Below are positions 9,869 to 20,110 of a stretch of 64,000 nt of DNA, piece after piece. Under the pieces are notes generated by a model that was not told the DNA's origin, made no database searches, and was given only the letters and a program-made list of their open reading frames with translations. Where the stretch lies: NCBI GenBank assembly GCA_048213135.1, contig PS015010.1:558001-622000 (forward strand), in the 5' to 3' direction. Position 1 is the stretch's first letter; every line of letters starts with the position of its first letter. Source of the DNA: Reclinomonas americana ATCC 50394 (taxonomy: Eukaryota). The position numbers were made by a program, and so were the translations under genes.

Positions 9869-11365
9869 ATGAAGATCAAATCTTTCCTGGCAAAACCATT
9901 TGCCGGTTATATTCATAAACAGATCAGGAAGGGAATGGAAACGGCCGTGGCTGATCAGCAGGCCATCTTTAATCACCTTATCAAAACCGGTCTAAAGACC
10001 GAATTCGGCAAAGACCATCTCTTCGCTGACATAAAATCCCATGCCGATTTTGTACAAAGGGTGCCCATCCGCGATTATGAGGCCTTTAAACCTTATATCG
10101 AAAAAATAAAATCAGGTAAGCATAATGTGCTGTGGAAAGGTCAGCCCATCTATTTCGCCAAAACAAGCGGTACCACCAGCGGCATCAAGTATATCCCCAT
10201 CACTAAAGACTCTATTCCCAATCATATCAACACGGCCCGTAACGCGTTACTGAGCTATATGGCTGAAACGGGCAACACCCGCTTTGCCGATGGTAAACTG
10301 ATCTTCCTGAGCGGCTCGCCCGAACTGGAACGCATCGGCGGTATACCTACAGGACGCCTGAGTGGTATCGTCAATCACCACGTTCCCAAATACCTGCGGT
10401 CCAACCAGTTACCGTCTTACACTACCAACTGTATTGAAGAATGGGAAGAAAAACTGGATAAGATCGTGGAAGAAACGATCAACCAGAACATGACCCTCAT
10501 CAGCGGTATACCACCATGGATGCAGATGTATTTTGACCGCCTGGAAGAAAAGAGCGGTAAAAAAGTAGGAGAACTCTTTCCCAACTTCAGCGTGATGGTA
10601 CAGGGCGGCGTCAATTTTGAACCTTACAAGGCTAAACTCTTCGAAAGCATCGGACGCAAAACGGATACCATTGAATTGTTTCCCGCCAGCGAAGGCTTTT
10701 TCGCCTTCCAGGATTCACAGGAAGCAGAAGGGTTATTACTCAATACCAACAGCGGTATCTTCTTTGAGTTCATACCAGCAGGGGAAATCTTTAACGAAAA
10801 CCCAACCCGTCTTACTTTACAGGACGTTAAGGTTGGAGAGAACTATGCCCTCATCATCAGCAGCAACGCCGGGCTCTGGGCTTACAATATCGGTGATACG
10901 GTAAAATTCGTTTCCACCGAGCCTTACCGCCTGGTCGTTAGCGGCAGGATCAAACATTTTATTTCCGCCTTCGGTGAACACGTTATTGGAGAAGAAGTGG
11001 AATCGGCCCTGCTCAAAGCGGCTGATGAAGAAAATGTTCATATTACGGAGTTTACCGTGGCGCCTATGATCTCGCAGGACGGAGGTAAAAGCTACCACGA
11101 GTGGTTCATAGAGTTTGAGAATACGCCACAGAATATGGCAGAGTTTTCCAGGAAGATTGATGACAACCTGCGTCATAAGAATGTGTATTACGATGACCTC
11201 ATATCCGGGAATATACTCCAGCAACTCAAAATATCACCTGTTAAAAAGAACGGCTTCATCAATTATATGAAAGCCATCGGCAAACTGGGCGGACAAAATA
11301 AAGTGCCGCGACTCAGCAACGACAGGGAGATTGCAGAAGGGCTGAAAGATTTTGTTACACATTAA
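9869..11365 (+). CDS. GH3 family acyl-adenylate/amido synthetase
   Basis: FAKTSGTTSG, PASEGFF, YNIGDTV, KLGGQNKVPRL; TAAGTTTG promoter at 9836. Confidence 0.92.
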   Translation: MKIKSFLAKPFAGYIHKQIRKGMETAVADQQAIFNHLIKTGLKTEFGKDHLFADIKSHADFVQRVPIRDYEAFKPYIEKIKSGKHNVLWKGQPIYFAKTSGTTSGIKYIPITKDSIPNHINTARNALLSYMAETGNTRFADGKLIFLSGSPELERIGGIPTGRLSGIVNHHVPKYLRSNQLPSYTTNCIEEWEEKLDKIVEETINQNMTLISGIPPWMQMYFDRLEEKSGKKVGELFPNFSVMVQGGVNFEPYKAKLFESIGRKTDTIELFPASEGFFAFQDSQEAEGLLLNTNSGIFFEFIPAGEIFNENPTRLTLQDVKVGENYALIISSNAGLWAYNIGDTVKFVSTEPYRLVVSGRIKHFISAFGEHVIGEEVESALLKAADEENVHITEFTVAPMISQDGGKSYHEWFIEFENTPQNMAEFSRKIDDNLRHKNVYYDDLISGNILQQLKISPVKKNGFINYMKAIGKLGGQNKVPRLSNDREIAEGLKDFVTH

Positions 11366-11506
11366 TTATCTCCTCTGTTGGTAAATTCCTTGCTCTCAAA
11401 ACGACTTCACTTAGTTTAACAACTGGTTGTAGTCTGTTGTCAGTTGTCTGTCGCCCCTTACCATTCATCATTAATACAAGGTTAATTTTTAAACTTTTGC
11501 ATCATT

Positions 11507-11540
11507 TTTGCGTCCATTATTGCGAAAACAGTTAGTTTTG
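11507..11540 (+). promoter_or_regulatory. Bacteroidota sigmaA promoter of arg operon
   Basis: TTTG at 11507-11510 and TAGTTTTG (TAnnTTTG) at 11533-11540. Confidence 0.65.
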
Positions 11541-11565
11541 CGTCAACAATTACAATAAAGGTCAA

Positions 11566-11676
11566 TTGACAAACAACATCACATACACAAAAACTACCAC
11601 TTTCATTTCCATTGAAAGGGTTTTTGCTATGGAAAATGTGTTTGAGTCTCTCCCGCGACCGCGACGTGGTTGCTGA
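11566..11676 (+). CDS. Putative arg operon leader peptide (MTNNITYTKTTTFISIERVFA-MENVFESLPRPRRGC; alternative ATG at 11629)
   Basis: Open frame between promoter and first arg gene ending CCG CGA CCG CGA CGT GGT TGC TGA. Confidence 0.65.
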   Translation: MTNNITYTKTTTFISIERVFAMENVFESLPRPRRGC

Positions 11677-11762
11677 TAGGACGAGTAGTTAAAAGCTACC
11701 CCTGTCAGTGAAAAAATCTCCGCAACTTTCTACATTAATTTATTCATTTTCAATTTTCAGAA

Positions 11763-12464
11763 TTGGAAACAAATGACATCCTTATAAGGGTTGCCACATC
11801 TGCTGACAACCATTATGCGAACATCATCACCGACGAAATGGAAGCTTCTGCCAAAGCCAGGGGCACCGGTATCGCCAAGCGTTCACCTGATTATATCATA
11901 CAAAAGATGAACGAAGGCAAAGCCGTGATTGCCCTTACTTCAAAGGGTGATTGGGTAGGCTTTTGCTATATCGAGGCCTGGGGGCACGAACAATTTGTAG
12001 CCAACAGCGGGCTGATCGTTTCGCCGGCATTCCGTAAAAGCGGCGTAGCCAAGTCCATTAAGGAAAGGATCTTCCGGCTCAGCCGGGAAAAATATCCTGA
12101 TGCCAAGATATTCGGGTTGACAACCGGCCTGGCAGTGATGAAGATCAATTCCGACCTGGGATACGAACCGGTAACCTATTCAGAACTTACAGACGATGAG
12201 GAATTCTGGGCGGGTTGCAAAAGTTGCGTGAACTATGACATCCTCATGAGTAAGGACCGTAAGAACTGTATGTGTACTGCCATGCTGTATGACCCTGCCG
12301 ATCATTATGAACCGGAGGAAACCGCGGCCAATTTCAAAAAACATTCACGGCTGTATGAACGTTTCACAGCGATCAAACAAAGCCGCCTGCTGAAACTGCT
12401 TACCAAAAAAGATGGCAGTAAACGCAGCGGGAAAAAATTATTGCATTATTTCTTTAACCTCTAA
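11763..12464 (+). CDS. GNAT-family N-acylglutamate synthase (ArgA substitute)
   Basis: GNAT motif VSPAFRKSGVAK, FWAGCKSC; first gene of arg operon; TTG start. Confidence 0.8.
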   Translation: METNDILIRVATSADNHYANIITDEMEASAKARGTGIAKRSPDYIIQKMNEGKAVIALTSKGDWVGFCYIEAWGHEQFVANSGLIVSPAFRKSGVAKSIKERIFRLSREKYPDAKIFGLTTGLAVMKINSDLGYEPVTYSELTDDEEFWAGCKSCVNYDILMSKDRKNCMCTAMLYDPADHYEPEETAANFKKHSRLYERFTAIKQSRLLKLLTKKDGSKRSGKKLLHYFFNL

Positions 12465-12475
12465 AACCGGTGTTC

Positions 12476-13678
12476 ATGTCAAAAAAAGTTGTGTTGGGCT
12501 TTAGTGGCGGGCTGGATACGTCGTATTGCGTAAAATATTTTATCGAAGAAAGACAGTACGAGGTTCACTCGGTGATCGTGAATACCGGCGGTTTCTCTGA
12601 AGAGGAACTTCGCCAGGTAGAAGCGCATGCCTACAAACTGGGTGTAACCACGCATACTACCATCGATGCTGTGGAATCTTACTACAACCGTATCATCCGT
12701 TTTCTCATTTATGGTAACGTCCTCAAGAACAACAGTTACCCCCTCAGTGTGAGCGCCGAACGGTTGAGCCAGGCCCTCTGTATTGCTGAACACGTGCAGC
12801 AACTGGGTGCCGATGCGGTAGCGCATGGCAGTACCGGCGCGGGTAACGACCAGGTTCGTTTTGATATGATCTTCAATATTATGATCCCCGGCGTGGAGAT
12901 CATTACCCCCATCCGCGATATGTCGCTCAGCCGCGAGGAAGAGATCGCCTACCTTAAAAGCAAGGGAGTTGACATGAACTTTGAAAAAAGTATGTACTCT
13001 ATCAATAAAGGCCTCTGGGGTACCAGTGTGGGTGGAAAAGAAACCCTGAACAGCAACGGTATGCTCCCTGAATCGGCCTGGCCTACTCAGGTAACGGAAA
13101 CGGGTACACGTAATGTAGAATTATACTTTGAAAAAGGAGAGTTGAAAAGCGTAAACGGGCAGATTTTTGCTCACCCGGCTAAAGCCATTCAACACCTGCA
13201 GCAGATCGCAGGTCCGTACGGTGTGGGCAGGGATATTCATGTGGGCGATACCATCATCGGCATAAAGGGCAGGGTAGGGTTTGAAGCGGCGGCGCCCATG
13301 ATCATCCTGAAAGCCCACCACAGCCTGGAAAAACATGTACTCACCAAATGGCAACTCAACTGGAAAGACCAGTTGGCTCTTTTTTATGGCAACTGGCTGC
13401 ACGAAGGACAGGTGCTCGACCCGGTAATGCGGGATATAGAAGCCTTCTTCACCAGCACACAGGAGAACGTTACCGGTAAAGTATATGTAGAACTGCAGCC
13501 CTACCGTTTCCAGGTTACGGGTATTGAATCGGAGTATGACCTGATGAGCAGCCGCTTTGGAAAATATGGTGAGATGAACAATGGCTGGACCGGTGATGAT
13601 GTCCGTGGCTTCTCTAAAATATTCGGCAATGCCGTTACCATTTATCACGCAGTAAAAAACAATGCACATGCCAGCTAA
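12476..13678 (+). CDS. argG: Argininosuccinate synthase
   Basis: FSGGLDTS, HGSTGAGNDQVRF, IIGIKGRVGFE. Confidence 0.96.
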   Translation: MSKKVVLGFSGGLDTSYCVKYFIEERQYEVHSVIVNTGGFSEEELRQVEAHAYKLGVTTHTTIDAVESYYNRIIRFLIYGNVLKNNSYPLSVSAERLSQALCIAEHVQQLGADAVAHGSTGAGNDQVRFDMIFNIMIPGVEIITPIRDMSLSREEEIAYLKSKGVDMNFEKSMYSINKGLWGTSVGGKETLNSNGMLPESAWPTQVTETGTRNVELYFEKGELKSVNGQIFAHPAKAIQHLQQIAGPYGVGRDIHVGDTIIGIKGRVGFEAAAPMIILKAHHSLEKHVLTKWQLNWKDQLALFYGNWLHEGQVLDPVMRDIEAFFTSTQENVTGKVYVELQPYRFQVTGIESEYDLMSSRFGKYGEMNNGWTGDDVRGFSKIFGNAVTIYHAVKNNAHAS

Positions 13679-14663
13679 GATCAGGACCGGGATAGTAGGT
13701 GGCGCCGGGTATACCGGTGGCGAATTGACCAGGATATTGCTGAATCATCCGGGTGCTGAACTGTTGTTTGTACACAGCAAAAGCAATGCGGGAAATCCGG
13801 TGGCCGCGGTGCACAGCGATCTGTCGGGCGATACCAACCTGCTCTTTACCGGCGACACCAGCTTTATGGGGAATGACGAAATCGATGTATTATTCCTTTG
13901 CCTGGGACATGGCGAAGCCCGTCGTTTCCTGGAGGCACAAACCGTGTACCCCAAAATAAAGATCATCGATCTTTCACAGGACTTCAGGCTGAAAGACAGC
14001 AGCAGTATCGGCGACAGGACCTTTGTATATGGTCTCCCTGAACTGAACCGAGCCGGTATCGGCAATGCATCGAATATTGCTAACCCGGGCTGTTTTGCCA
14101 CAGCCATACAATTAGGTCTGCTGCCATTGGCACAGGCAGGCCTGGTCACTGATATTTATACAACCGGAATTACCGGCTCAACAGGTGCAGGACAGGGACT
14201 GAGTGCTACTTCCCACTTCACCTGGAGGGCCAATAATATACAGGCTTACAAAAGCCTCCAGCACCAGCACCTGGCCGAGATCGGGGAGTCGCTGGGACAA
14301 TTGCAACCGGGTACAGACATCGACATCAGCTTTGTACCCTGGCGCGGCGACTTCACCCGTGGCATCTTCATCAGCTCTCAGTTAAAATGCGACTGGAGCG
14401 ATAAGGAGATCAATAACCTGTATGAAGCCTATTATGCTGAGCATCCTTTTGTAACCGTATGCACAGATCCCATTTTTCTGAAACAGGTAGTGAACACGAA
14501 CAAAGCGGTGATCCATATTGAAAAAGTAGGGACCAAACTGGTCGTACACAGCGCCATCGACAACCTGCTGAAAGGAGCCAGCGGACAGGCAGTACAGAAC
14601 ATGAACCTCCTGTTCGGATTTGAAGAAACGATGGGGCTGAAACTGAAAGCGAACTTTTTTTAA
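13668..14663 (+). CDS. argC: N-acyl-gamma-glutamyl-phosphate reductase
   Basis: GGAGYTGGEL, IANPGCFAT, IDNLLKGASGQAVQNMN. Confidence 0.96.
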   Translation: MPAKIRTGIVGGAGYTGGELTRILLNHPGAELLFVHSKSNAGNPVAAVHSDLSGDTNLLFTGDTSFMGNDEIDVLFLCLGHGEARRFLEAQTVYPKIKIIDLSQDFRLKDSSSIGDRTFVYGLPELNRAGIGNASNIANPGCFATAIQLGLLPLAQAGLVTDIYTTGITGSTGAGQGLSATSHFTWRANNIQAYKSLQHQHLAEIGESLGQLQPGTDIDISFVPWRGDFTRGIFISSQLKCDWSDKEINNLYEAYYAEHPFVTVCTDPIFLKQVVNTNKAVIHIEKVGTKLVVHSAIDNLLKGASGQAVQNMNLLFGFEETMGLKLKANFF

Positions 14664-14723
14664 GTTTCCCTGCAGGCCGCGCCAGGAAGACGGGCCTGCA
14701 GGGAATAACCTTATTCAACCACG

Positions 14724-15857
14724 ATGAAACTTTTTGACGTATATCCCATAAATGACATCACCATTGCCAAAGCGGCGGGTAATTATGTATGGGATGATAA
14801 AGGAGAGCAATACCTTGACCTCTACGGCGGCCATGCCGTGATCTCCATCGGGCATACGCATCCCCATTACGTAAAGCGCATAGAAGACCAGCTGCATAAA
14901 GTAGGTTTCTATTCCAATTCGATAAAGATCCCTTTGCAGGAAGAACTGGCGGAAAAACTGGGGAAACTGTCCGGTAAGGAAGACTACCAGCTTTTTCTCT
15001 GTAACTCCGGCGCGGAAGCCAATGAGAACGCGATGAAGCTGGCCTCTTTTTATAACGGCCGGAAAAAGATCGTGGCTTTCAGTAAAGCCTTTCATGGCCG
15101 TACATCGCTGGCTGTAGCCGCAACGGATAACCCGAATATTGTAGCGCCGGTGAACGCGACGGACAATATCGTATTTCTTCCGTTTAATGATGCCGCCTCG
15201 CTGCAACAATTCTTTGCTGAACACGGAAACGAAATTGCCGGGGTGATCATGGAAGGTATACAGGGTGTAGGTGGCATACATGTGGCGACAGATGAGTTCC
15301 TGCAAACCGCCAGGCAGGTATGCGATGAATACAATGCCATCCTGATTGCCGACTCGGTACAATGCGGTTACGGAAGAACAGGGCAATTCTATTCGCATGA
15401 CCACAGCGGCATACAGGCTGATGTTTATTCTATGGCCAAGGGCATGGGCAACGGTTTCCCGGTAGCGGGCATTTCCATAGCACCCAAACTGCACCCCAAA
15501 CATTTTATGCTGGGTACCACATTTGGTGGCAATCACCTGGCCTGCGCCGCGGCATTGTCGGTGCTGGAAGTGATGGAAGAAGAACAACTGATGTCAAATG
15601 CAGCTGCAACAGGCAACTACCTGCTGGAAGAGTTAAAGCAATTGCCCGGCATTAAAGAAGTGAGGGGCAGGGGCCTGATGATCGGTATTGAACTGCCCGC
15701 GGAAAAAGCGGAAGTAAAAAAGAACCTGCTGTTCAAACATAAAATTTTCACCGGCGAAGCGAAACCCAATGTCATCCGCTTATTGCCGGCGCTGAACCTG
15801 GGCAGGAAAGAAGCAGATCGTTTCCTGGACGCGTTGAAAAAAGAGCTGTCTGCTTAA
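14724..15857 (+). CDS. argD: Acylornithine aminotransferase
   Basis: NSGAEANE, FHGRT, DSVQCGYGRTG, MAKGMGNG. Confidence 0.93.
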   Translation: MKLFDVYPINDITIAKAAGNYVWDDKGEQYLDLYGGHAVISIGHTHPHYVKRIEDQLHKVGFYSNSIKIPLQEELAEKLGKLSGKEDYQLFLCNSGAEANENAMKLASFYNGRKKIVAFSKAFHGRTSLAVAATDNPNIVAPVNATDNIVFLPFNDAASLQQFFAEHGNEIAGVIMEGIQGVGGIHVATDEFLQTARQVCDEYNAILIADSVQCGYGRTGQFYSHDHSGIQADVYSMAKGMGNGFPVAGISIAPKLHPKHFMLGTTFGGNHLACAAALSVLEVMEEEQLMSNAAATGNYLLEELKQLPGIKEVRGRGLMIGIELPAEKAEVKKNLLFKHKIFTGEAKPNVIRLLPALNLGRKEADRFLDALKKELSA

Positions 15858-15882
15858 ATGAATCGCTGAAAAAGGGTATGCG

Positions 15883-15907
15883 GTACAAGTGAGTGACACA
15901 ACGATGT
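15883..15907 (+). repeat. 25-bp dispersed intergenic repeat GTACAAGTGAGTGACACAACGATGT
   Basis: Exact reverse complement at 21471-21495. Confidence 0.85.
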
Positions 15908-15943
15908 CCCAGTAGATACTGCAGCCGGTAATAAAAAATAAAA

Positions 15944-16906
15944 ATGCAACATTTTGTTTCTGTTGATGATGTAACCGATGTGGATGCGCTCGTAAAAAAA
16001 GCACTGGCCTTTAAAGCCAATCCCTTCCTGCAACGTATGCTGGGCGCCGGCAAACGAGCAGGCCTGCTTTTCCTGAATCCTTCGCTGCGTACCCGATTGA
16101 GTACGCAGGTGGCCGCGTCGAACCTGGGCATGGAAGCGATCGTGTTCAATGTGGACAAAGAAGGATGGGCGCTGGAATTTGAGGACGGCGCCATCATGAA
16201 CGGCACAACCGTTGAACATATTAAAGACGCGGCACCCGTACTGGGCAGTTATTTCGATGTGCTGTGCGTACGTACTTTTCCATCGCTGGTCAGCAGGGAA
16301 GAGGACTACAGCGAAAAAGTGATCAACGCTTTCATTACATACGCCGGTGTGCCGGTAGTAAGCCTCGAAAGCGCCACGCTGCACCCGCTGCAATCACTCA
16401 CCGATATCATAACAATGGAAGAAGTGACGGCGAAGAACAATATCATCAAACCTAAAGTCGTACTCAGCTGGGCACCGCATGTAAAAGCGTTGCCGCAATG
16501 CGTGGCCAATTCCTTTGCCCAATGGGTGAATGCCTGGGGTAAAGCCGATTTCGTGATCACGCACCCTGAGGGCTATGAACTGGACGAGAAATATACAGCA
16601 GGCGCCACCATCACACATAACCAGGAGGAAGCCTTTGCCGGCGCTGATTTTATTTATGTGAAGAACTGGAGTTCGTATAAAGAATATGGAAAAATACTGA
16701 CTAACGGTAACGGATGGATGCCGGACCAAGCCAAGCTGGCGAGCAGCAACAATGCTAAAATAATGCACTGCCTGCCGGTAAGGCGCAACGTGGAACTGTC
16801 TGACGACCTGCTCGACAGCCCCGCCAGCCTGGTTACCCAGCAGGCAGCCAATCGTGTATGGGCCGCACAGGCGGTATTCGCCAGCATACTGGAGTCAAAA
16901 CAATAA
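15944..16906 (+). CDS. argF: N-acyl(succinyl/acetyl)ornithine carbamoyltransferase
   Basis: SLRT carbamoyl-phosphate motif, HPLQ, MHCLPVRR. Confidence 0.92.
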   Translation: MQHFVSVDDVTDVDALVKKALAFKANPFLQRMLGAGKRAGLLFLNPSLRTRLSTQVAASNLGMEAIVFNVDKEGWALEFEDGAIMNGTTVEHIKDAAPVLGSYFDVLCVRTFPSLVSREEDYSEKVINAFITYAGVPVVSLESATLHPLQSLTDIITMEEVTAKNNIIKPKVVLSWAPHVKALPQCVANSFAQWVNAWGKADFVITHPEGYELDEKYTAGATITHNQEEAFAGADFIYVKNWSSYKEYGKILTNGNGWMPDQAKLASSNNAKIMHCLPVRRNVELSDDLLDSPASLVTQQAANRVWAAQAVFASILESKQ

Positions 16907-16908
16907 TT

Positions 16909-17697
16909 ATGCAGCAACTGTTTGTCATCAAGATAGGAGGTAATGTGATCGACAAGGAAGAAAGCCTTGCCGAATTTCTGCGTGATTTCGCCGCTGTTGA
17001 TGCACCTAAAATACTGGTGCACGGCGGTGGTAAGATCGCCACCCGCATCGGCGAACAACTGGGATTGCAGGCGCAATACCACAATGGCCGCCGCATTACC
17101 GATGAAGCCACGCTTGACCTGGTGACGATGGTTTACGGCGGACTGGTGAATAAAAAGATAGTAGCTCAGTTGCAGTCATTGGGCTGCAATGCCATTGGAA
17201 TGACCGGCGCCGACGCCAATATATTACCCGCAGTGAAAAGACCGGTAAAGGATATCGACTATGGTTTTGCAGGCGATGTTAAGGGCGACAAGATTCCCGC
17301 TGCTACCATGCAGGCTCTGCTGCAATCGGGCTTAATACCCGTACTGGCACCGCTTACACACGATGGTGAAGGGCATATGCTGAATACCAATGCCGATACC
17401 ATCGCGTCTGCTGTTGCAGTGGCTTTGTCGGGGTACTACCAGGTACGCCTCGTATATTGTTTTGAAAAGAAAGGTGTGCTTGATGATGTAAACAATGACG
17501 ATTCAGTAGTACCGCTGATCAACCGGACCATCTACCAGCAACTGCTCAGCGAAGGCAAATTGGTGGAAGGTATTCTGCCCAAAATAGACAATGCTTTTGC
17601 CGCGATCGATAAAGGAGTGAAAGAAGTCCTGATCGGCGATGCCCGTGACCTGGTTCCCAATTGTACCGGTTCAGTAAAAGGAACACTTTTTCAATAA
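16909..17697 (+). CDS. argB: Acylglutamate kinase
   Basis: VIKIGG, VHGGG, GRRITD, LNTNADT. Confidence 0.94.
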   Translation: MQQLFVIKIGGNVIDKEESLAEFLRDFAAVDAPKILVHGGGKIATRIGEQLGLQAQYHNGRRITDEATLDLVTMVYGGLVNKKIVAQLQSLGCNAIGMTGADANILPAVKRPVKDIDYGFAGDVKGDKIPAATMQALLQSGLIPVLAPLTHDGEGHMLNTNADTIASAVAVALSGYYQVRLVYCFEKKGVLDDVNNDDSVVPLINRTIYQQLLSEGKLVEGILPKIDNAFAAIDKGVKEVLIGDARDLVPNCTGSVKGTLFQ

Positions 17698-18794
17698 TGC
17701 CGGATAACTATTTATACAACGAAGCCCTGCAGTTGCTGCAACAACTGATCGCGGTGCCGTCTTTTTCAAAAGAGGAACAGGAAACTGCGGGTATCATTAA
17801 CCGTTATCTTCAGCAGAAAGGCGTGACAACACAAAGATCGCTTAACAATGTATGGGCCGTCAACCGGCATTTTGATCCTGCTAAGCCTTCCATCCTGCTC
17901 AACTCGCATCACGATACGGTAAAACCCAACCCCGGTTATACCCGTGACCCTTTTCAACCTGAAATTACCGATGGAAAATTATACGGCCTCGGCAGCAATG
18001 ATGCCGGAGGGCCGCTGGTCAGCCTGATCGCTACCTTTATCCATTTTTATGACCAGAAAGGCTTAACCCATAACCTGGTACTGGCCGCTACAGCGGAAGA
18101 AGAGATCAGTGGTATCAACGGTATTGAACAGCTCTGGCCCCAATTACCGCAGATCGCTGCCGCCATTGTTGGTGAACCCACACTTACGCAACTTGCCATA
18201 GCAGAAAAGGGTCTGCTGGTACTCGATTGCGAAGCCAAAGGAAGGGCAGGGCACGCCGCAAGGGAAGAAGGAGACAGTGCGCTGTACAAAGCGATGGACG
18301 CCATCAACTGGTTTCGTACTTACCGGTTTCCCCAGGTATCCGCAACACTCGGCCCGGTGAAAATGAGTGTGACCAGCATCGAAACACCCAACAAAGCGCA
18401 CAACGTAGTACCCGATACCTGCCGCTTCGTGGTGGACATCCGCGTTACCGACAGCTACACGCATGAAGAAGTATTGCAGATCATCCGCGAAAATGTAACC
18501 GTTGAGGTAAAGCCCCGCAGTACGCGATTACGTTCTTCATCCATAGCCGCCGATCACCCGCTCGTGAAAGCAGGAACAGCATTGGATAAAACGGTGTACG
18601 GTTCGCCCACCAGTTCCGACGCTGCGCTGATGCCTGTGCCTGTGCTCAAGTGCGGACCCGGCGACAGCGCCCGCAGCCACACCGCCGATGAATTCATTTA
18701 TTGTAAAGAAATAGAGGAAGGTATTGCTACCTATATTGGTATATTGACAACGATATTAAACCCCGCAGATCATGAAACTCTGGCAAAAAAATAA
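17697..18794 (+). CDS. argE: M20 family deacylase (acylcitrulline/acylornithine deacylase)
   Basis: LNSHHDTV, GLGSNDAG, AEEE, GEPT, SHTADE; TAATG coupling with argB. Confidence 0.88.
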   Translation: MPDNYLYNEALQLLQQLIAVPSFSKEEQETAGIINRYLQQKGVTTQRSLNNVWAVNRHFDPAKPSILLNSHHDTVKPNPGYTRDPFQPEITDGKLYGLGSNDAGGPLVSLIATFIHFYDQKGLTHNLVLAATAEEEISGINGIEQLWPQLPQIAAAIVGEPTLTQLAIAEKGLLVLDCEAKGRAGHAAREEGDSALYKAMDAINWFRTYRFPQVSATLGPVKMSVTSIETPNKAHNVVPDTCRFVVDIRVTDSYTHEEVLQIIRENVTVEVKPRSTRLRSSSIAADHPLVKAGTALDKTVYGSPTSSDAALMPVPVLKCGPGDSARSHTADEFIYCKEIEEGIATYIGILTTILNPADHETLAKK

Positions 18795-20110
18795 AACCGC
18801 TCTGCAGGAAGTGGAACAATTCACTGTAGGAAAGGACAGGGAACTGGATCTGCTGCTGGCGCCTTATGATGTGCTGGGATCACTGGCCCATACCCGGATG
18901 CTGGCCTCCGTTGGTCTGCTCACCGAACAGGAATGCAAAGTACTGCAGGAAGAATTGAAAAATATTTACCTGCAAACACAGCACCCGGACTTTCGTCTCG
19001 AAGACGGCGTAGAAGACATCCACTCACAGGTAGAACTGTTGCTCACCCGCAGGCTGGGCGATGCCGGAAAAAAAATACACAGCGCCCGCAGCCGCAACGA
19101 CCAGGTACTCCTCGATATCAAACTCTTCCTTCGTGCGGAAATAGAAAAACTGGTAACGAACAGCCGCTCGCTGTTCGACCTGCTTATTACGCAAAGCAAC
19201 ACATACAAAGAACACCTGCTGCCGGGTTACACCCACCTGCAGCTGGCCATGCCTTCTTCGTTCGGACTATGGTTTGGCGCTTATGCCGAGAGCCTGGCTG
19301 ACGATCTTATTACCCTTCATGCCGCCTGGGAACTGGTGAACAAAAACCCGCTGGGCTCTGCCGCAGGGTATGGATCCTCCTTTCCCGTCAACCGGCAAAT
19401 GACCACCGACCTGCTTGGTTTCGGCAGCCTGAACCATAACGTGGTGTATGCGCAAATGGGCCGCGGTAAAACAGAAAGGGTAGTGGCCGCCGCCATGGCC
19501 AATATCGCCGCCACACTTGCCAAACTCAGCATGGATGCCTGTTTGTACCTCAACCAGCATTTCGCGTTCATCAGTTTCCCCGATGAACTTACCACCGGCA
19601 GCAGCATCATGCCGCATAAAAAAAAATCCCGATGTATTCGAACTCATCCGTTCCCACTGTAACCGCCTGCAGGCGCTGCCCAACGAGATCATGATGATGA
19701 CCACCAACCTGCCATCGGGTTATCACCGCGACCTGCAATTGCTGAAAGAACACCTGTTTCCGGCATTTACCACTCTCAACCAGTGTATCGAAATGACGGG
19801 CTTCATGCTCAGCCAGGTAGAAATAAAAAAGAACATTCTTGACGGGGAGCAATTCCAGTATCTATTCACCGTGGAGGAAGTAAACCGCCTGGTAGCTTCG
19901 GGTATCCCTTTCCGTGATGCGTACAAACAGGTGGGACAGTCCATCGAAGAAGGGAAATTCTCCTGGTCCGGGCAACTCAACCACACCCACGAAGGTTCTA
20001 TTGGCAACCTGCACAATGAACAAATCGTGGCCGCAATGGAAAAGATCGTGAAGAGGTTTGAGTTTGAAAAAGTGAAAACGGCCATTGAATTACTAATTAC
20101 GAATTATTAA
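18772..20110 (+). CDS. argH: Argininosuccinate lyase, split by a +1 frameshift at A9 (19618-19626)
   Basis: HSARSRNDQ, PGYTHLQ; signature GSSIMPHKKNP restored by deleting one A. Confidence 0.93.

Follow-up and report, generated by a model that had tools for sequence, protein, structure and literature searches.

A conserved leader with arginine codons beside its stop, a candidate ribosome-based attenuator of an arginine biosynthesis operon in Bacteroidota

The leader region and the operon downstream

We analyzed a stretch of 64,000 nucleotides (the window; assembly GCA_048213135.1 of Reclinomonas americana ATCC 50394, contig PS015010.1, positions 558,001 to 622,000). The window is part of a Chitinophagaceae-like bacterial contig in an assembly of 108 Mb and 16,441 contigs and probably derives from a co-assembled bacterium. 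The leader region and the operon lie on the forward strand. The operon of interest begins with a gene for a GNAT acyltransferase that has a TTG start (11763 to 12464; weak GNAT matches) and continues with argG, argC, argD, argF' (acyl-ornithine carbamoyltransferase), argB, a gene for an argE-like deacylase, and argH (12470 to 20110; NCBIfam scan and ORF list). The argG gene follows GNAT in 73 of 80 close loci and in 47 of the 48 wider-sample loci with enough flanking sequence. Judged by its position, the GNAT protein is probably an N-succinyl- or N-acetylglutamate synthase. According to the GapMind paper (PMC7311316), most Bacteroidetes use succinylated intermediates and BT3761 has been proposed as the first enzyme; from the operon position, we infer that the present GNAT is the counterpart of BT3761. 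The argH gene is split over two frames (18772 to 19662 and 19517 to 20110), with a frameshift near 19620 at a run of nine A (19618 to 19626). An assembly error in the homopolymer is the simplest reading, slippage also being possible.

Just upstream of the leader region is a GH3-like gene (9869 to 11365) with a weak, below-cut-off match to OlsH; a relative of this gene is present at 29 of 80 loci, a loose link. Short GTTGTC-type repeats (11400 to 11455) lie 3' of it, and one relative shows a 7-base insertion of one repeat unit at 11442.

The region between the GH3-like gene and GNAT contains a promoter-like element (11507 to 11540) composed of TTTG (11507 to 11510) and a -7 box, TAGTTTTG (11533 to 11540). 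We take this combination to be a putative Bacteroidota-type housekeeping promoter. Of 172 relatives, 148 have a -7-like box at a distance of 70 to 160 nt upstream of the stop codon of the leader. Downstream of the element is an unannotated leader ORF (11566 to 11676; 36 codons; TTG start and TGA stop; C-terminal end FESLPRPRRGC), which is supported by its open frame and by pN/pS. The frame stays open from 11536 to the TGA at 11674 to 11676, with TTG 11566 and ATG 11629 inside it, and its 3' end (11653 to 11676) reads CCG CGA CCG CGA CGT GGT TGC TGA. The first five of these codons (11653 to 11667) form the conserved Arg-codon cluster, the predicted sensing site. The leader peptide had no match in Pfam.

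Covariation and folding support a conserved hairpin at 11673 to 11708, which consists of an outer stem, P1 (CTGATAGG/CCTRTCAG, including the stop codon), an asymmetric internal loop, and an inner stem, P2 (GTAG/CTAC). In the window, the P1 arms are CTGATAGG (11673 to 11680) and CCTGTCAG (11701 to 11708). The hairpin is followed by TG(A/G)A and a C-run and then by a C-rich, G-poor tract (11709 to 11757), which is, by conservation and composition, a candidate pause and Rho-loading site; only 4 G occur in the 55 nt before TTG 11763. A comparison of the interval 11200 to 12000 with Rfam covariance models returned four weak, unrelated matches far below the gathering score. An earlier note on this DNA had described the promoter at 11533, the frame from TTG 11566 or ATG 11629 to a TGA, its SLPRPRRGC ending and clustered Pro and Arg codons, the hairpin over the stop, and the G-poor tract before a TTG start, all of which we find as it had described them.

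Conservation of the reading frame and its arginine codons

Close relatives were taken as the best 80 of 506 GNAT relatives in genome contigs, the titles of which are mostly Chitinophagaceae. The hairpin is present at 75 of 81 GNAT loci (the window counted in); the six misses comprise three contigs that stop short of the region, one masked sequence, and two loci with other Arg-ended leaders. At 73 loci, the upstream DNA is long enough to follow the leader frame, which contains 0 stops in 1,752 codons, compared with 68 and 72 in the other two frames. An in-frame TTG, GTG, or ATG is found 22 to 38 codons before the stop at all 73 loci, with a peak at 31 to 36 codons, just after the -7-like box. 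Because relatives keep a start at this distance, the leader probably begins at TTG 11566; ATG 11629, at 15 codons, is not conserved among relatives and was rejected. The comparison of upstream regions across relatives that the earlier note had suggested as a check thus yields a uORF conserved in frame and start at 73 of 73 loci, and its Arg-rich C terminus is kept as well.

An independent metagenome scan used the hairpin alone as its pattern, which included only the stop among the leader features. GNAT is directly downstream at 116 of the 120 loci recovered; at the remaining four, the contig breaks off within 86 nt. At 104 distinct loci with sufficient upstream sequence, 0 stops were present in 2,496 leader codons (102 and 104 in the other frames), in-frame starts were present at 92 loci (1 and 12 in the other frames), and Arg occupied codon -4 at 100. 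When leaders were compared in 48 disjoint pairs, codons -26 to -9 showed 112, 106, and 178 substitutions at the first, second, and third codon positions, respectively; pN/pS was 0.41 in frame, 1.05 and 1.27 in the shifted frames, and 0.06 for GNAT (the sequences are related, and counts and P values overstate independence). The substitution pattern of the leader is a coding signature, short of proof of translation. Short ORFs are common, and the final codons of this one overlap a conserved RNA element, as might be expected of a chance ORF in a conserved 5' untranslated region. Such an origin is nevertheless extremely improbable in view of the lack of stops in both sets, the excess of in-frame starts in the metagenome set, and the excess of third-position substitutions.

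Codon counts were based on 172 distinct leaders out of 179 usable ones. Arg accounts for 438 of the 1,376 codons in the last eight positions, compared with 108 of 2,752 further upstream, and is found at codon -4 in 162 leaders. All 172 leaders have at least one Arg among the last eight codons, 168 have CGA there, and seven have a single Arg. Furthermore, CGA represents 233 of the 438 leader Arg codons (53%) but 76 of 1,213 (6%) in GNAT, and no other Arg codon is used less often in the long ORFs of the window (45 of 687). The tRNA-Arg genes detected in one relative by Rfam and ARAGORN have the anticodons ACG, CCG, TCT, and CCT. No tRNA-Arg(UCG) was present among the 42 tRNA matches in this relative (150 of 249 candidates scored), and a pattern search for it, which had no positive control, found nothing. 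Because no tRNA-Arg(UCG) was found in the relative, CGA is likely decoded by the ACG tRNA. In a ribosome assay with the Salmonella his leader, CGA was decoded more slowly than CGU and CGC (PMC4046918). The word ACATA is present early in 99 of the 172 leaders; it was not called as an RNA motif, since 109 of its 137 occurrences are in the His-codon frame.

The hairpin, the downstream RNA, and possible outputs

The hairpin was evaluated in 46 of 74 aligned sequences. Pairing was observed in 97% of cells, with double changes in 5 of 13 pairs, and 0 of 500 shuffles equaled this result; controls in which the hairpin was slid showed 33 to 49% pairing. Covariation was mostly in P2, and six of the eight P1 pairs never vary, so that covariation lends P1 little support; the near-invariance of P1 may mean that its sequence matters for some other reason than pairing. 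The mean energy of the hairpin was -12.6 kcal/mol, and the leader RNA (11545 to 11790) folded better than 200 of 200 shuffles (z, -3.2). The consensus fold is a single hairpin with no second, competing helix, in an alignment whose variable spacer aligns poorly. We predict that it acts as a pause and rut-masking hairpin.

Immediately after P1, T at +1, G at +2, and A at +4 are invariant in 172 of 172 leaders, a C-run is present at +10 to +13, and +11 is a pyrimidine in 169. At 11 nt past the stem, these leaders agree with a pause consensus (10.1101/604074) at G-10 (172 of 172) and Y-1 (169 of 172) but not at G+1, where 160 have C, a misfit that counts against the attenuation model described below. 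Bacteroides polymerase follows this consensus and uses pause hairpins (PMC11685472). The 55 nt that lead up to the GNAT start have a median C>G skew of 0.375 (n = 165), compared with 0.067 for a control set of 213 5' regions. Over the first 8 nt past the stem, there are at most 5 T (0 of 172 leaders with at least 6), which bears out the absence of a U-tract reported in the earlier note, and no terminator-like site was found on the forward strand of the window. An intrinsic terminator was rejected for lack of a U-tract.

Our preferred reading, to which we give somewhat better than an even chance, is that the leader is an attenuator that reads charged tRNA-Arg through its Arg codons, with Rho terminating transcription when arginine is plentiful. 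RNA polymerase would pause approximately 11 nt past the hairpin. In the presence of arginine, the leading ribosome would read CGA-CCG-CGA-CGT, arrive at TGA, melt P1, free the C-rich 3' arm, and depart, and the naked C-rich RNA would then load Rho and lead to termination. In its absence, the ribosome would stall four to six codons before the stop and P1 would remain paired; the stalled ribosomes would cover the leader and keep Rho off, and the operon would be transcribed. The sign must be that the operon is on in arginine starvation. Indirect evidence points to Rho as the output, namely, the missing U-tract, the C>G-skewed tract, a speFL-like geometry (see below), and the presence of a Rho gene in the source assembly (on a different contig, C1) and in five of five relatives. 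When ribosomes were represented as masks in folding, the 3' arm of P1 scored 0.05 unpaired with the ribosome stalled at Arg -6, 0.23 with it at Arg -4, and 0.60 with it at the stop, and unmasking was predicted in 138 of 165 sequences. By this modeling, the geometry permits a switch, a result that is partly built in, in that a mask over the 5' arm necessarily leaves the 3' arm without its partner.

Metatranscriptome contigs of a close relative, approximately 97% identical over the leader and GNAT, were found in four runs of one study (runs from other studies are probably DNA). They start at 11536 to 11696 and end at 12133 to 12292, extending 370 to 530 nt into GNAT with no sign of an end after the hairpin, and have depths of 16 to 126, compared with 3 to 5 for argG contigs; neither the depth nor the end of a contig can serve to rank genes or to map RNA ends, and we rest no conclusion on these data. 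Contigs that reach into GNAT would also suit an arrangement in which the same Arg-codon sensor acts mainly on translation initiation at the weak GNAT start or on mRNA decay, with Rho causing secondary polarity. The GNAT start is TTG (62) or GTG (13) in all 75 relatives, and the fold predicted for the window places a hairpin on the start codon. There are precedents in two studies: the arginine response of Salmonella orf34 operates via unfolding of the ribosome-binding site and RNase G (PMC6386406), and rbfL of Staphylococcus aureus acts by occlusion of the ribosome-binding site (PMC13009471). However, the start hairpin is missing from the consensus structure, and the leader stop is 82 to 129 nt from the GNAT start, too far for occlusion. 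Predicted accessibility of the start region was 0.49 to 0.53 in all six ribosome states, and of 165 sequences, 41 were more open and 41 less open at the start in the stalled state than in the free state. A conserved switch at the GNAT start was rejected on the basis of this mask folding, and we regard the arrangement as a whole as unlikely.

The selection on the middle of the peptide appears to exceed the needs of pure codon sensing, and this counts against the attenuator reading. It would be better accommodated if the nascent peptide sensed free arginine or a pathway intermediate in the exit tunnel, with arginine parking the ribosome at TGA, where it would hold P1 open and leave the C-rich arm accessible to Rho. 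The logic would be that of the fungal arginine attenuator peptide. Compatible with this are the pN/pS of codons -26 to -9, a leader length that is steady near 30 to 37 codons (about the length of the tunnel), Gly at codon -2 in 156 of 172 leaders, and the existence of certain leaders with one Arg. In addition, enrichment of Phe, Leu, and Ile at codons -8 to -12 recalls the Phe-rich effector domain of SpeFL (10.1101/604074). On the other hand, none of the positions farther upstream than -7 shows family-wide conservation, and the only feature in common with the peptides of other lineages is C-terminal Arg. None of the 172 leaders contains HIRRxxH or RAPP, RAGP, RAPG, or RGPP, the latter four of which we take to be arrest-peptide motifs. 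Finally, the strong preference for CGA favors decoding over peptide chemistry, and peptide sensing seems to us rather unlikely.

ArgR, the wider phylum, and known systems

Control by the ArgR repressor is the textbook picture for arginine biosynthesis. The earlier note had remarked on an operon lacking argR; indeed, none is present among the operon ORFs of the window, and ArgR (PF01316) was not found in the source assembly, in any of five relatives, or, above the cut-off, in any of 151 order-level genomes, which gave a single weak match. This search relied on one Pfam domain in assemblies that may be incomplete, and the control in Bacteroides thetaiotaomicron was positive. GNAT is present in 52 of the 151 genomes. 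Of 201 genomes sampled across the phylum, 87 have ArgR and 79 have GNAT, and only four have both. Two of these four are clear cases, in which argR is directly before GNAT and the leader is absent; the other two have weak, partial ArgR matches, one of them in a leader-bearing genome.

In the order and phylum samples, 7 of 114 GNAT loci have the hairpin and 107 do not. At 68 of these 107 loci, there is nevertheless a uORF whose last eight codons include two or more Arg (100 shuffles, 10.8 +/- 3.0; maximum, 18), and at 55 the uORF has three or more (1.5 in shuffles); genomes of the phylum sample are related and the loci are not independent, and absence means not found in the genomes searched. No other tested residue comes near Arg at uORF ends. 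The Arg codons of distant leaders are CGG (128), CGC (44), AGG (35), and CGA (32), and their hairpins differ as well. Because distant leaders use CGG or AGG, it is Arg itself that appears to be kept rather than one RNA word. A U-tract with a hairpin is found in 2 of the 68 distant leaders, and the C-skew is 0.33 at leader-bearing distant loci compared with 0.08 at leaderless ones. Rfam models applied to 20 distant loci matched one tRNA and nothing else. An Arg-ended leader is lacking at 26 of the 107 distant loci, most of which also lack a detectable ArgR; these loci and the seven single-Arg leaders among the 172 count against the codon-sensing model.

Several distant loci have features of their own. 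CGG-rich leaders (..RRIPRRR*; L264, L279, L281, L285, L293, and L296) are accompanied by a second predicted RNA module, in which a TTACCG strand farther downstream would form a helix with the last Arg codons and the stop and enclose an inner hairpin, again a layout with the stop in a helix. Two groups of single-Arg leaders have well-kept peptide ends (L233 and L235 to L238, ..L[NH]FECRP*; L226, L228, and L229, ..NPIILPFFIRL*) and make the strongest candidates for sensing through the peptide. Arg-rich mini-ORFs occur as a tandem pair in L253 and L265, and in L319 and L321 their stops are located approximately 165 to 170 nt upstream. L247, L249, and L251 are AT-rich, with no Arg leader, no ArgR found, and a promoter that abuts the gene; 30 to 100 nt before GNAT, they have AAGATA-N4-TATCT-like palindromes, a candidate operator for another arginine regulator.

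The near-invariance of P1, of the internal loop, and of the TG(A/G)A tail might instead indicate that regulation resides in the hairpin itself, as a binding site for a protein or as a ligand-binding RNA, and that the ORF positions ribosomes or senses general slowness (Pro-Arg, EF-P, or tRNA modification) rather than arginine; the Pro residues common at -7 and -5 fit this as well. A covariance model of the hairpin found seven strong matches in 150 genomes of the order, one per genome and each at GNAT, and two weak matches in unrelated coding DNA that we took as chance; with 33 candidates scored per genome, a second site elsewhere could be missed. The hairpin thus accompanies only a subset of the GNAT loci of the order, whereas Arg-ended leaders occur at 68 loci without it, the enrichment of Pro falls well below that of Arg (two or more among the final eight codons at 19 loci, compared with 68), and Rfam yielded no match. 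We therefore consider regulation by the hairpin itself quite unlikely.

Ribosome-based arginine sensing, whether through Rho termination, through translation or decay, or through the peptide, is very likely because Arg-ended leaders vary in their codons, track one operon, and nearly exclude ArgR. The earlier note had proposed ribosome-mediated sensing of arginine, and the comparative support for it is strong: a coding frame, Arg codons beside the stop, exclusive linkage of the hairpin to the operon, and no ArgR found.

Among known systems, speFL/orf34 of Escherichia coli and Salmonella, as described in PMC6386406 and 10.1101/604074, resembles the present leader in its approximately 34 codons near the transcription start, in rare Arg codons, in a stop inside a pause hairpin, in the lack of an intrinsic terminator, and in Rho output, which would apply here by inference. 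The ribosome unwinds the hairpin at the speFL stop, and its release exposes a rut site. In those sources, however, SpeFL stalls on ornithine through an HIRRxxH sensor and induces a decarboxylase, and its Arg codons are at positions 12 and 13, whereas the Arg codons described here abut the stop, HIRRxxH is absent, no homology is detectable, and the gene set downstream is GNAT-argG-argC-argD rather than speF. The parallel that the earlier note drew with SpeFL holds in geometry; that with TnaC does not. TnaC likewise couples a leader ribosome to Rho, but it is a poor analogue because its stall, set off by tryptophan at the stop codon, hides rut and turns a catabolic operon on, whereas starvation must switch on a biosynthetic one here.

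The classical attenuators (trpL, hisL, leuL, thrL, and ilvL) share with the present leader a short reading frame, codons for the end product near its 3' end, a biosynthetic operon, and the predicted read-through in starvation, but here no U-tract terminator and no competing antiterminator were found. In the mgtL and corL leaders, completed translation restructures the RNA, unmasks rut, and leads to termination, with the same predicted sign; mgtL differs in responding to Mg2+ through Pro codons, and the organisms and sequences are different (review PMC12360218, Table 2). The uORF rbfL likewise senses arginine limitation through rare Arg codons, but it has eight codons, overlaps the downstream ribosome-binding site, represses under limitation, and controls a biofilm regulator (PMC13009471). 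The leader would work like a Rho-coupled attenuator and falls outside both the classical terminator class and the SpeFL family.

A transcriptome of Flavobacterium psychrophilum lists hisG and ilvE leaders, and the word "arginine" is absent from that file (PMC9723704, supplement 8). Our literature search found no published description of this leader and no case of a bacterial arg biosynthesis operon under a leader-peptide attenuator. Subscription journals, including older computational attenuator surveys, and bioRxiv supplements were outside the search, and an earlier prediction may exist.

In a bolder version, which we regard as improbable, much of Bacteroidota would have swapped ArgR for ribosome-based sensing, and the Chitinophagaceae leader would be a true arrest peptide that free arginine parks at the stop, with Rho as output. 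If true, bacteria would have their own equivalent of the fungal arginine attenuator peptide, opposite in sign to TnaC and SpeFL. On our preferred reading, in which charged tRNA-Arg is read and Rho terminates, the few Rho-coupled uORF attenuators would be joined by one that serves biosynthesis and is induced by starvation, in a phylum in which both Rho and translation initiation are unusual. The occurrence of the same sensor with Arg codons and RNA modules that differ by lineage would provide a natural test of attenuator evolution. Ribosome-based sensing of arginine would explain how many soil, freshwater, and marine Bacteroidota control a costly pathway without ArgR.
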